From a virus (taxonomy: Duplodnaviria; Heunggongvirae; Uroviricota; Caudoviricetes), in the IMG/VR virus record IMGVR_UViG_2778261301_000008, positions 1 to 29,154 of that record: 29,154 bases of DNA, one strand, 5' to 3'. Positions 25,810-29,154 of the stretch are shown in pieces. The number at the start of each line of letters is the position of its first letter. Position 1 is the stretch's first letter. Below the pieces are notes generated by a model. It saw only the letters and a program-made list of their open reading frames with translations, searched no databases and had not been told where the DNA came from. Position numbers and translations under genes: made by a program.

Positions 25810-26150
25810 CGTAAAACATCCTCCACGCTTATCAATCCGTTCCGCTCCAGATAACTCATCGCCTTATCCGGTAATTTGCAGTCTGGCTTCGCTTTCCTCA
25901 GTTGCCAGGCTAACTGCTTTACCTGCATAGTTAACTCGTCGACCAGACGCTGATACCCCACTGGTTTGTATTCATGCAATTTACCGGCTGGCTCTGCTGC
26001 CAGCGATACCAGTGCGATTTCCAGAACAGCAATATCCATCTTATATGTGCGGATGATGTCATTGTCGATTGTGCCCGGTATGCACAATCTCTGTGCTTCA
26101 ATAGTCTCCTCTGCGTGAGCTATTAACTGCTCTCTGGTAAAAGTCGTCAT
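25806..26150 (-). CDS. Hypothetical protein (114 aa)
   Basis: ORF with ATG overlapping the HNH gene stop (ATGA). Confidence 0.5.
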
Positions 26151-26512
26151 GCCGTAGCCCCTTCTTGATATTTTTCAAACCAGAACACAACTGGGTCAGA
26201 TTTCATTTCAACCAATCCCATACGAACCAGCGCCTTGCCTTTCCCGGACGCAAGGAATTCACGACGACCATCACTGATAATTCGCCGATAATCTTCCAGG
26301 CTACTGCAATGCTTGTGCAGATTGCATGGGTGGCATGCCGGAACCATGTTGGATATATCGTCACGTTCCTGGTGAAGCATATTTCCATCAAAACGGATGA
26401 CCGGTTTTACATGGTCTGCATGCCACTTTTCGCCAAGTTCGCAGCCGCAATAAGCGCAGCGACCACCGAACTTCATGCGCAGTTCTGCACGTTGTTTTTT
26501 CGTCAGTGACAT
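26147..26512 (-). CDS. HNH endonuclease
   Basis: CAYCGC...HADHVKP...CHPCN motif; AAGGAA Shine-Dalgarno. Confidence 0.8.
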
Positions 26513-26513
26513 A

Positions 26514-26732
26514 TCAGCTTTCCTTATACGGATTAATTTTATTGTGTAGTGTGTTGAATGGTCCCCATATCACATCGGTATATAACTCAATAATAGGTTC
26601 AATTATTTTCACGATTATCCAGACAAAAATTAGCGGGGATATCGGTATCATCAACACGATAAACAGAATGAGAAACAAAAATTCTGTCGCTCTACTCTTT
26701 CGCGGATATTCTTTTCTGAATAATGTAGTCAT
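26514..26732 (-). CDS. Hypothetical small membrane protein (72 aa), AT-rich
   Basis: Hydrophobic core FLFLILFIVLMIPISPLIFVWIIVKII; stop abuts the HNH gene start. Confidence 0.5.
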   Translation of the reverse strand: MTTLFRKEYPRKSRATEFLFLILFIVLMIPISPLIFVWIIVKIIEPIIELYTDVIWGPFNTLHNKINPYKES

Positions 26733-27027: not shown

Positions 27028-27384
27028 TTATTCAGTTCTGGATTTCGTCGCCCTGCGTATCCGCGCTTTCGCGTTACGCTCAATCTGAATTAACTTTTCT
27101 ATATTTTTCCGTCTTTCCTGTTCCTCCTGGCGCAATAGCCTTACATCATCTGCCAGTCTGGTTTCTCTTTTCGCCACAGAGAGCATCCAGTCAAACGGCT
27201 CCACAACTGCACCGCAGATTTTACAGCGGACCTGACGCTCTTTTTCGTCAACCCGGACAGAAGCGTGATGACAATATGGTCTTTCCGATGGCTCATAAAG
27301 AAAATTAACCTGATTACGTGGGTCATCCTCTTTTACCGGAAATAAAACAATATTACTTAACTCATCTTCTGGTTTGATTTCCAT
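27028..27384 (-). CDS. Hypothetical Zn-ribbon protein with C-terminal basic coiled coil (about 118 aa)
   Basis: Track ORF trimmed to ATG (MEIKPEDELSN...) with GGAGAGGAG Shine-Dalgarno; CHH...CKIC motif. Confidence 0.5.
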   Translation of the reverse strand: MEIKPEDELSNIVLFPVKEDDPRNQVNFLYEPSERPYCHHASVRVDEKERQVRCKICGAVVEPFDWMLSVAKRETRLADDVRLLRQEEQERRKNIEKLIQIERNAKARIRRATKSRTE

Positions 27385-27949
27385 GCTCCTCTCCTTTGAT
27401 GCGAATGCCAGCGGCGCGTGGCACATTAGCTTCCACGATGCGCACAGTTGGTTTGTACATCTCAATCGCTGCCAGCCAGTCAGCTCCTGTCATGCGCTTT
27501 TCTGCATCGCCATTAGTCCACTGAACCGGTACACCAATAGCCTTCATCGCAATTTCTATTTCCCCGGCAATGGCGCTTTTTCCGCAACCAGTAAAACCAG
27601 ATACAACGACAAGAACTTCGCCCTTGGCCGGTTTTATTTCCCGCGCTTCCAGCTCTTTAACGCGCTCCTCGAGTTCGTAGACTCTGCATTGTTCTTTATC
27701 ATCAATCAGATATAACCCAAGACATTCGCTTTCTACCCAGCCACCGAAATCATGATCGTAACGCTCACATGAAAACTCACCGTCGCTGTCCTTTGTTGGG
27801 ATGGTGTAGCTATCTAATGGGCCACCATACGTCGGCACATTTCCCAATGTCGGATGCTCAATCCACATGAAAAATGCACGTCCGGTTATTGGGCAAATAT
27901 CTGGTCGCCATTGGTTACTCACTGGTTGCCTCCTGGAAAATAACTGCAT
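27362..27949 (-). CDS. Hypothetical protein (195 aa) with Walker A-like motif
   Basis: N-terminal region resembles phage DUF551-type proteins (weak recollection); C-terminal SGFTGCGKS fits the GxxGxGK[ST] pattern. Confidence 0.5.
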   Translation of the reverse strand: MQLFSRRQPVSNQWRPDICPITGRAFFMWIEHPTLGNVPTYGGPLDSYTIPTKDSDGEFSCERYDHDFGGWVESECLGLYLIDDKEQCRVYELEERVKELEAREIKPAKGEVLVVVSGFTGCGKSAIAGEIEIAMKAIGVPVQWTNGDAEKRMTGADWLAAIEMYKPTVRIVEANVPRAAGIRIKGEEHGNQTRR

Positions 27950-28214
27950 GCCCCAGCTTCTCCGCCAGTGCCAGTTCCGCCTTAGCGCCTGCTGACCGCT
28001 GCCAGCCTTTCAGCATGTAAATCGCATCCACACAACGAATCATTGCCATGCAAATATCCATGTAGTGTGGCTGTGTCAGCCCGTCCGGAAGTACTGCCGG
28101 GTTTAAGACGGTATGCCCTTCCCGTTTCAGTTCCTCTTCCACCTTGTCGAACGCCTCACGGTTGAAATTTTTATACCCGGTCATTGGACCAGCGATATAA
28201 ACCCTCACCCTCAC
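27915..28214 (-). CDS. DUF4406 / nucleoside 2-deoxyribosyltransferase-like protein
   Basis: 99-aa ORF beginning MRVRVYIAGPMTGYKNFNREAF, with the YIAGPMTG-type motif I associate with this family. Confidence 0.6.
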   Translation of the reverse strand: MRVRVYIAGPMTGYKNFNREAFDKVEEELKREGHTVLNPAVLPDGLTQPHYMDICMAMIRCVDAIYMLKGWQRSAGAKAELALAEKLGHAVIFQEATSE

Positions 28215-28639
28215 GCCATCACCTCCTGAAAATTACCCTGATAAAACGCCAGCACACGCTGCATAACCTCACTCTGACGGCACTCACGGCAAATTATGTT
28301 CTGGCTCCTGTCGTAGCGGCGTATTTCTCCGTCTGGTAACTTTCGAATCAGTGTCAGGTCGGTTCTTTTCTCCGGTGTCTTACGCCATTCGCGATACGTC
28401 TGCTCTGACGCAAAAACACCGTATTTACCGGACATGTATAAATCGCCACAAGCCAGCACATCCACAAGGCAGCGTCGGACCGAATGCCAGCCTGCCCCAG
28501 TCGCCCTCTCCAGCTGCGACATCGTCATGCGTTCATTTTTGCGTACCAACCCGATAATTCGTGCCTTCAGCTCTTCCCGCTGTTCGGGTGTATATGCTTT
28601 TGCCACAAGCCCTCCTGAAAAATAACCTTCACAATTCAT
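28211..28639 (-). CDS. Ren-like protein
   Basis: C-terminus ...ICRECRQSEVMQRVLAFYQG resembles recalled lambda Ren C-terminus (...VFKECRQSAAMKRVLAVYG); position after the P-like gene; true start may be internal. Confidence 0.5.
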   Translation of the reverse strand: MNCEGYFSGGLVAKAYTPEQREELKARIIGLVRKNERMTMSQLERATGAGWHSVRRCLVDVLACGDLYMSGKYGVFASEQTYREWRKTPEKRTDLTLIRKLPDGEIRRYDRSQNIICRECRQSEVMQRVLAFYQGNFQEVMA

Positions 28640-29154
28640 ACAAAACCAGCCGCTTTCCGGCGCTCATATTCCTGTTTCAGCAACTCAATTGGTGTTGGCC
28701 ACGACGGGCGTTCTGGTGCTGCCAGTTGCCGCCGTACGGGCGGAACGCTGAAGCCATTACCAACATGCTTTGCCCATTTCGTCAGCTGCCGTTCTGCAAG
28801 CCGTTTTAACTCCCCTTCGGTCATCTGGCGCTCAATCCCCTTTGAACGCATCTCGAGACAAATGTGATACAGCACAGGCTGAGACCACGGATATTTATCG
28901 CTCCCGTCGTATCGCCAGGACTCGTTGCGCCAGCGGCGGTACTCCTCCATCACGGCATCCACCGTCAGACTGAATGGATTGGCCCCGCTTTCCGAAATCA
29001 GCGCCACAAACTCAGCCAGGTCCGGAGGCCATGTTTCACCCGCCCGGCAGCGGTCCATGCACTGGCGGCAGACCTGCCGGATTTGCTGCTCAGTCATCGC
29101 ACCAATCTGTGCAATCCAGAGCTTCGAAGGTGCGGCCCCGTTCTTCTGGGTCCA
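28636..29154 (-). CDS. Replication protein P-like (helicase loader), C-terminal part; ORF is open to the window end
   Basis: Minus-strand frame stays open upstream of the track ATG to the window edge; the YPWSQPVLYHICLEM region resembles recalled lambda P (YPWKSNAHYWLVTNL). Confidence 0.45.
   Translation of the reverse strand, partial: WTQKNGAAPSKLWIAQIGAMTEQQIRQVCRQCMDRCRAGETWPPDLAEFVALISESGANPFSLTVDAVMEEYRRWRNESWRYDGSDKYPWSQPVLYHICLEMRSKGIERQMTEGELKRLAERQLTKWAKHVGNGFSVPPVRRQLAAPERPSWPTPIELLKQEYERRKAAGFV

Follow-up and report, generated by a model that had tools for sequence, protein, structure and literature searches.

This locus raises the question of whether two overlapping genes of a lambda-like (lambdoid) Escherichia coli prophage, one for a DUF4406 protein and one for a protein with a Walker A motif, form a working pair in nucleotide chemistry or are two separate genes, and what kind of protein the motif belongs to. 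The window is the whole 29,154-nucleotide (nt) stretch analysed (IMG/VR record IMGVR_UViG_2778261301_000008, positions 1 to 29,154), and the genes in the part considered here all lie on its minus strand. The initial annotation described a 195-amino-acid (aa) protein with the motif SGFTGCGKS, whose gene overlaps that of a DUF4406-like protein by about 35 nt, and tentatively linked the pairing to nucleotide metabolism or DNA modification. The reading we favour, with somewhat more confidence than doubt, is that these are two separate accessory genes of an early rightward operon, and that the motif protein carries an exchangeable mini P-loop cassette which probably binds a phosphate-bearing ligand. 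The features that carry this reading are as follows.

27915 to 28214, minus strand: DUF4406 gene, 99 aa, GTG start (PF14359, phrog_355; RefSeq places the gene of a near-identical prophage at the same coordinates).
27362 to 27922, minus strand: gene for a 186-aa Ea22-type mosaic protein without the N-terminal PF13935 domain, preferred GTG start, stop codon at 27362 to 27364.
27419 to 27637, minus strand: 73-aa mini P-loop cassette within the 186-aa protein, bounded by DNA homology breaks.
27575 to 27598, minus strand: Walker A motif GFTGCGKS (within SGFTGCGKS), read from the translation.
27431 to 27433, minus strand: invariant glutamate E70, ending the hydrophobic stretch TVRIVE (100% in 209 sequences).

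GFTGCGKS is the only GxxGxGK[ST] string in the six-frame translation of the window (shuffled sequences give 0.135 on average), which taken alone is suggestive; judged by its conservation, it is not a chance string. Conservation was scored over 209 distinct near-full domain sequences, with residues numbered along the 75-aa stretch at 27416 to 27640. The pattern [GA]xxxxGK[ST] is intact in 206 of them, with K21 and S22 at 100% and the motif glycines at 98 to 100%, so the motif stands up to the comparison of homologues on which the initial annotation had made it depend. About 20 positions outside the Walker A motif are near-invariant. Counting the motif residues in, G15, K21, S22, G26, E27, I28, E29, I30, G36, E47, P64 and E70 reach 100% to rounding, D54 is at or near 100%, and T51, A53, W55 and Y62 are at 99%. 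E70 is a candidate Walker-B-like acid. Along its length the cassette has a hydrophobic stretch followed by GxxGxGKS, then a helix and another hydrophobic stretch, the conserved segment EK.MTGADW, a further helix and V.IVE.

An exhaustive HMMER search with the 75-residue stretch returned 441 clusters (50% identity) at E<=1e-3. The proteins that contain it are 110-510 aa long and have it mostly as their C-terminal and sometimes as their N-terminal part, and a Pfam scan of ten long cassette-bearing proteins gave no significant partner domain. Some such proteins (P0253, 166 aa; P0326, P0327 and P0335, 260-453 aa) carry further unannotated domains after the module or have it at the N-terminus, ahead of long alanine/proline-rich linkers, so that a C-terminal position is not obligatory. 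A word-index search recovered many free-standing homologues of 71-90 aa (approximately 72 aa) that are 55-70% identical; some sources call them kinases, a name that presumably stems from the motif. Free-standing module genes are found in alpha- and beta-proteobacterial prophages, and the isolate genomes with the module are of Methylobacterium, Mesorhizobium, Brevundimonas, Pandoraea, Methyloversatilis and Serratia; the Collinsella and Marmoricola labels of two metagenome-assembled genomes were rejected as unreliable. Of 5,426 complete E. coli genomes, 365 (about 7%) contain cassette DNA; as in phage records, it lies mostly within coding sequences named ead or Ea22-like, and these genomes include 81 plasmid places of approximately 90-100 kb (e.g. 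NZ_AP027192.1 and NZ_AP035758.1), probably P1/P7/D6-type phage-plasmids. By these comparisons the cassette is a mobile, conserved, autonomous module of about 70 residues outside every curated family.

Neither the 186-aa nor the 195-aa form of the motif protein matches a Pfam or NCBIfam family, PF13935 (Ead_Ea22) included. A homologue search covering 5.8 billion proteins gave a cluster representative of the same length (P0001, 186 aa, 99% identical) and showed that the 186-aa protein corresponds, at 93-96% identity, to the C-terminal 180 or so residues of 269-310-aa 'ead/Ea22-like' proteins (P0003 and P0004; 96% identity across 96% of the query for P0003). The PF13935 N-terminal domain is found in the longer homologues P0003-P0005, P0018 and P0052. 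The motif gene would accordingly encode a fragment-type ead/Ea22-like protein, and alignment divides it into four parts, the cassette and the following three.

27698 to 27919, minus strand: mid domain, NQWRPDICPITGR...GLYLIDD, predicted to be beta-rich (five strands in the AlphaFold2 model, predicted local distance difference test (pLDDT) score 55-69).
27638 to 27697, minus strand: short helix, possibly a coiled coil (KEQCRVYELEERVKELEARE; helix 75-94 of the model), its 3' end being the cassette's upstream recombination junction.
27365 to 27418, minus strand: shared tail, PRAAGIRIKGEEHGNQTRR, the downstream recombination junction, within which the next gene has its ribosome site and its start.

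At the DNA level, loci with other cassettes are approximately 94-95% identical to the window through DUF4406 and the mid domain; identity drops sharply at 27638/27635 and resumes at about 27412-27418. The short helix reads EQCRVYELEERVKELEARE in the aligned proteins, and the tail begins RAAGIRIKGE. Between the same flanks the proteins collected hold four unrelated cassettes of 73, 41, 34 and 30 aa, with a P-loop only in the 73-aa type, so that at least four cassette types use the slot. They would be swapped by homologous recombination in the conserved flanks, ...ELEARE upstream and RAAGIRIKGE downstream. The shared tail contains the Shine-Dalgarno sequence (GGAGAGGAG) and ATG (27384) of the next gene, which accounts for its conservation and for its ability to serve as a junction. 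The tail common to all cassette types (IKGEEHGNQTRR) is thus a recombination junction constrained by two overlapping reading frames. The locus is an example of cassette exchange at conserved linker sequences within a phage gene, and ea22 genes have been described as mosaics in which interchangeable C-terminal domains are joined on behind a helix or coiled coil (PMC10834534). That structural paper does not mention the P-loop cassette.

Matches to the mid domain come from 42 phage records and lie mostly within full-length Ea22-like genes of Shiga-toxin (Stx) phages and P7, and phages P7 and D6 have the cassette or the mid domain. Its identity with the '63-residue segment' of Stx Ea22 variants was not confirmed, the 42 matches covering only a subset of Stx2 phages and P7 and not including 933W or phi24B, and a zinc-binding role for its cysteines was dropped because one of them is unconserved. 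A 241-aa Salmonella enterica protein (P0014) has the mid domain (NSYWKPDVCPVTGR...YLIDDDEQCR) in tandem duplicate, followed by the fourth, 30-aa cassette type.

Whether the cassette is a P-loop fold is a separate matter. About 70 residues follow the motif in the open reading frame (ORF), and the conserved unit of approximately 65-73 aa is too small for a five-stranded nucleoside triphosphatase (NTPase) core, for a kinase or for any standard NTPase fold, in agreement with the initial annotation, which had noted too little downstream sequence for a kinase. Among 83 members searched against Pfam, sub-threshold matches were obtained to AAA_16 (72 of 83), APS_kinase (68 of 83, best E 8e-5) and AAA_18 (67 of 83), almost exclusively to the first 40 or so positions of these P-loop families (about 3-40 in APS_kinase). 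When the family profile was compared with PDB sequences, only Walker A segments matched, the top one being a designed 'phosphate-loop protein' (6c2u, E 0.019); no significant match to solved structures was obtained by sequence for either the 186-aa protein or the cassette profile. An NCBIfam match to OppF (16 bits vs 540) and a match of the cassette profile to HasAp were judged spurious.

The initial annotation had proposed structure prediction with a Foldseek search as a check, and for the motif protein this gave neither a P-loop NTPase fold nor a structural match. The AlphaFold2 model of the cassette, built from an 83-sequence alignment (pLDDT 82, predicted template modelling score 0.68), has three helices (21-34, 46-50 and 55-62) and zero beta strands, where a P-loop NTPase is a three-layer alpha/beta fold with a parallel sheet of at least five strands; it had no structural match. 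The full-length model of the 186-aa protein has a mean pLDDT of 66.8, and Foldseek against PDB returned nothing for it (best E 0.76). The first 40 or so residues look, in sequence, like the beta1-Walker A-alpha1-beta2 element of P-loop proteins, which the structure model does not confirm.

These structural results are an argument for reading the loop as a structural or protein-interaction surface and not as a nucleotide binder, for example as a mimic of the N-terminal segment of a host P-loop protein that poisons or docks onto an oligomeric ATPase or kinase. The likeness to P-loop families ends after about 40 residues, the helix that follows GKS bears two invariant acidic residues, E27 and E29, which is not typical of NTPases, and the C-terminal domain of lambda Ea22 has been proposed to offer a ligand loop to an unknown host protein (PMC10834534). 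The conservation speaks the other way: complete retention of K21 and S22 with near-complete retention of the glycines is what phosphate and Mg2+ binding would lead one to expect, and the invariant T51, together with E70 after a hydrophobic stretch, is compatible with Mg2+ and nucleoside triphosphate (NTP) chemistry. On balance we consider a purely structural or protein-binding loop unlikely.

Under the reading we favour, the cassette would bind a phosphate-bearing ligand (an NTP, another nucleotide or nucleic acid) as an oligomer, and would act as a portable sensor or effector head of phage-host interaction proteins. An oligomeric way of working is suggested by two observations, the size of the unit, which is too small for a complete NTPase fold with a five-stranded core, and its usual position after a helical or coiled-coil segment in fusions; it is simplest to suppose that a sheet, if there is one, comes about only on oligomerisation. 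Short beta-(P-loop)-alpha polypeptides bind NTPs, polyphosphate and single-stranded DNA as oligomers (bioRxiv 10.1101/2020.07.30.228619), so that a module of this size can in principle be functional. The stronger claim, that the module, at 65-73 aa, is a naturally occurring minimal P-loop domain that stands on its own, a counterpart in nature to the laboratory-made P-loop prototypes and an oligomeric binder of NTP or nucleic-acid phosphate that serves as a portable head in many proteobacterial phages, free-standing or on Ea22-type scaffolds, is one we put forward tentatively, as possible but with the odds against it.

The surroundings of the module were surveyed at 96 cassette loci (80 viral contigs and 16 genomes). 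Free-standing modules lie within arrays of small early genes, with an integrase adjacent at one locus, and no conserved neighbour gene was found across 15 diverse cassette loci. At one locus (L007, 4507-4722 and 5001-5216), from a metagenome-assembled genome labelled Marmoricola, a 71-aa module stands two genes downstream of a Tad2-like gene (anti-Thoeris family), with RecT nearby; the label is doubtful given a G+C content of 57.8%. Such settings would suit an anti-defence module, in which the cassette, alone or on an Ea22-type scaffold, sequesters or hydrolyses a nucleotide immune signal or an NTP, and DUF4406 is an independent counter-defence enzyme. Placement of free-standing copies in early accessory arrays, one of them two genes from the Tad2-like gene, would fit this, as would the small size, high mobility and domain shuffling typical of counter-defence genes, and that the module is so highly conserved between hosts far apart is in keeping with a universal small-molecule ligand. 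The context evidence is anecdotal, from two loci; no PADLOC model was matched (the library covers defence, not anti-defence), and the literature found on deoxyribosyltransferases, prophages and anti-defence consisted of general papers, none of them supporting it. The only tested Ea22 phenotype is pro-lysogenic (PMC7093339; PMC10834534). We regard an anti-defence role as improbable.

The identification of the 99-aa product as DUF4406-like in the initial annotation was correct. It matches Pfam DUF4406 (PF14359) at E 6.4e-37 and 126.3 bits, against a gathering cutoff of 22, with residues 4-93 aligned to profile positions 2-91 of 91, and phrog_355, 'nucleoside 2-deoxyribosyltransferase', matches it at 2e-47. 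Y6, A8-G9-P10-M11, N18-R19, Y51-M52-D53, W71, S74, G76 and E80 are invariant in 30 DUF4406 homologues. All 30 match DUF1937 below or near threshold, and 17 and 8 match DUF7768 and Nuc_deoxyrib_tr (best E 5e-4), respectively, below threshold. These matches run over the whole length and so support membership of a deoxyribosyltransferase-like superfamily, of which the DUF4406 protein would be a minimal member, although for PF05014 the full-length match stays below threshold (14.8 bits vs a cutoff of 28.8). We take the YxAGP and SxGxxxE motifs of DUF4406 to resemble the glycine-rich N-terminal and catalytic-glutamate motifs of nucleoside 2-deoxyribosyltransferase (NDT) and DNPH1. The protein probably acts on the N-glycosidic bond of a nucleotide-type substrate, with an N-glycosidase-type activity on a nucleotide or nucleoside. 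Sequence searches of the protein and of the family profile against solved structures returned no solved relative, a match of the profile to O-succinylhomoserine sulfhydrylase (E 0.008) being judged spurious, and no functional or biochemical study of DUF4406, PF14359 or DUF1937 was found in the literature.

Two proteins with nucleotide-related signatures, encoded by overlapping and plausibly coupled genes, invite the proposal of a co-translated two-enzyme unit that would serve nucleotide metabolism or modify phage DNA, for instance by linking a kinase-like step with a glycosyl-transfer or hydrolysis step. The distribution of the two genes tells against it. A DUF4406 ORF lies within 4 kb at 6 of the 96 cassette loci, leaving 90 without one, and the architecture of the window recurs at only two (L043 and L096). 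L096, from a metagenome-assembled genome labelled Collinsella, has a DUF4406-mid-domain-P-loop arrangement of E. coli type, 97% identical and with 47% G+C, and is almost certainly a mis-binned enterobacterial phage contig. The cassette also occurs in exo-xis-type Ea22 genes and phage-plasmids that lack DUF4406. Conversely, the DUF977-DUF4406-mid-domain block, with the same junction and 8-nt overlap, occurs with P-loop-less cassettes and with different replication modules, and in Salmonella and Enterobacter prophages DUF4406 stands just after the replication genes, and the gene behind it, which overlaps it by 4 nt, is of the DUF4752, Ead_Ea22 or DUF551 kind.

One protein, P0015 (249 aa, on a 1,756-bp Logan contig), joins DUF4406 and the mid domain in a single reading frame, the fusion having arisen by loss of one G in CAGGAGG at a junction equivalent to window 27915-27940. 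It comes from a single short contig and could be a real fusion or an assembly error, and the cassette it carries is P-loop-less. In favour of a two-enzyme unit there are, besides this fusion, the presence of the arrangement in up to 55 complete E. coli genomes and the fusion of some DUF4406 PHROG relatives to MazG-like pyrophosphatases (phrog_12019). Since the cassette is also too small for a kinase substrate site and gene overlaps are generic in this operon, a dedicated DUF4406/P-loop nucleotide-metabolism partnership is not supported, and we consider the two-enzyme unit very unlikely; the joint role first suggested for the pair falls with it. The initial annotation had named as fatal to its proposal a match of both proteins to known nin-region families with unrelated roles. 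This holds in part, the motif protein belonging to the mosaic ead/Ea22-like set, for which the sole tested role is the pro-lysogenic one (PMC7093339; PMC10834534).

The overlap itself depends on where the motif gene begins. The longest ORFs are 99 aa at 27915-28214 and 195 aa at 27362-27949, both on the minus strand, so the length and the 35-nt overlap (27915-27949) first reported are true of the longest ORF only; the likely product is 186 aa long, from GTG 27922, with an overlap of 8 nt. The features of the junction are these.

27923 to 27949, minus strand: in-frame extension up to ATG 27949, the start first proposed; probably untranslated, with no good Shine-Dalgarno sequence.
27929 to 27934, minus strand: Shine-Dalgarno sequence AGGAGG within the DUF4406 coding sequence, 6 nt before GTG 27922.
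27915 to 27922, minus strand: 8-nt start/stop overlap, GTGAGTAA, of the DUF4406 and 186-aa genes, read from the sequence.

ATG 27949 is conserved because it is embedded in conserved DUF4406 codons, GGG-CAT-GCA (G-H-A); the GGAG upstream of it is weak and distant, and relatives show no homology upstream of NQWRPD. GTG 27922 (...TTCCAGGAGGCAACCAGTGAGTAACCAATGG...) has a perfect AGGAGG at 6-nt spacing, kept in 10 of 10 DUF4406-mid-domain junctions examined, the window not counted. It is favoured because it is the start in the RefSeq annotation of the 99.7% identical prophage, because its equivalent was chosen by the gene calls at six other loci (L009-L014) with the same 8-nt overlap, and because the exact point at which homology with longer relatives sets in, NQWRPD, coincides with it. 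The two genes may well be translationally coupled, in an ordinary way and with no mark of a specific DUF4406/P-loop partnership, overlaps of 4-23 nt being present at every junction of the operon; the one between DUF4406 and the motif gene consequently carries no special message.

Both genes lie in a nin-type accessory region between the replication gene P and the antiterminator Q, as had been assumed in the initial annotation, and have the following neighbours.

28636 to 29097, minus strand: replication protein P.
28211 to 28639, minus strand: DUF977 gene, 'Ren-like' in PHROGs (Pfam PF06163, E 2.9e-61; phrog_142).
27028 to 27384, minus strand: downstream gene, 118 aa, phrog_1621, with a weak zinc-ribbon match, overlapping the 186-aa gene by 23 nt.
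26514 to 26732, minus strand: phrog_4659 ORF; the equivalent ORF of the RM8082 prophage bears the annotation DUF4014.

The P/DUF977 and DUF977/DUF4406 junctions each overlap by 4 nt (GTGA in the latter, where the DUF977 stop meets the DUF4406 start), and the motif gene and the next gene by 23 nt. DUF977 followed by DUF4406 is a recurrent order in E. coli and Salmonella prophages. The RM8082 chromosome is 99.7% identical to a 1-kb stretch around the two genes, and at least 80% of this stretch is carried by 55 of the 5,426 complete E. coli genomes. The accessory region also holds an HNH endonuclease and the phrog_4659/DUF4014-type ORF (window 26147-26512 and 26514-26732), with more genes toward Q. 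In the near-identical RM8082 prophage (L002, 3740-4302) a ParD/ParE toxin-antitoxin pair lies further downstream, and the gene upstream of P (L002, 7791-8831), in the position of replication protein O, is called 'pyocin large subunit' in RefSeq, apparently a misleading name.

Several points weigh against two separate genes with a phosphate-binding cassette. The cassette reaches no curated cutoff of a P-loop family in Pfam or NCBIfam (APS_kinase 16.3 bits vs 21.1; AAA_16 14.6 vs 32.6), and the second motif glycine is missing from three natural variants, GLTGSDKS, GFTGCCKS and GFTGCAKS. DUF4406 often has an Ea22-type or DUF551 mosaic gene behind it, and with the one P0015 fusion this leaves room for a looser association of DUF4406 with Ea22-type genes in general. 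The GTG start is a prediction, and we infer ligand binding, oligomerisation and the biological role of the cassette from its sequence, whereas its boundaries, conservation and distribution, and the structure and family relations of the genes, are observed.

A P-loop/DUF4406 enzyme pair as first stated would change little. What remains is a module of some 70 residues that is widespread and very strongly conserved, keeps its Walker A motif intact and is far below the size of any accepted P-loop NTPase fold. Should the module prove to be an oligomeric nucleotide binder, ideas about minimal P-loop proteins could be tried on a natural example, and there would be a first biochemical handle on one effector head of the Ea22-type proteins, which are enigmatic and influence the lysis-lysogeny decision in Shiga-toxin phages; no functional study of the module was found in the literature.

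Among known systems, NDT and DNPH1 are proteins of approximately 150 aa, whereas DUF4406 has about 97 aa and roughly four strands. With APS-kinase (PF01583), AAA_16 and AAA_18 the cassette shares a strand-like hydrophobic stretch, GxxGxGKS, an amphipathic helix and a second hydrophobic stretch ending in D/N-G-D, and its invariant glutamate after a third hydrophobic stretch is a candidate counterpart of Walker B. P-loop NTPases have at least 150 aa, with a lid, a substrate site and strands 4-5, and the cassette, at 65-73 aa, is without these. The P-loop prototypes of the Tawfik laboratory (PDB 6c2u and 6c2v) are similar in size, rely on one or two beta-(P-loop)-alpha elements, bind NTPs, polyphosphate and single-stranded DNA in oligomeric form (bioRxiv 10.1101/2020.07.30.228619) and give the best PDB sequence match; they are artificial consensus constructs, and the match to the phage cassette is limited to the Walker A segment. 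The solved C-terminal domain of lambda Ea22 is unrelated to the 73-aa cassette, which has no PDB sequence match. The 186-aa protein is mosaic like the published Ea22 variants but lacks the PF13935 N-terminal and coiled-coil part of Ea22, and while Ead and Ea22 are encoded in the exo-xis region of the leftward early operon, the 186-aa gene lies instead between P and Q.

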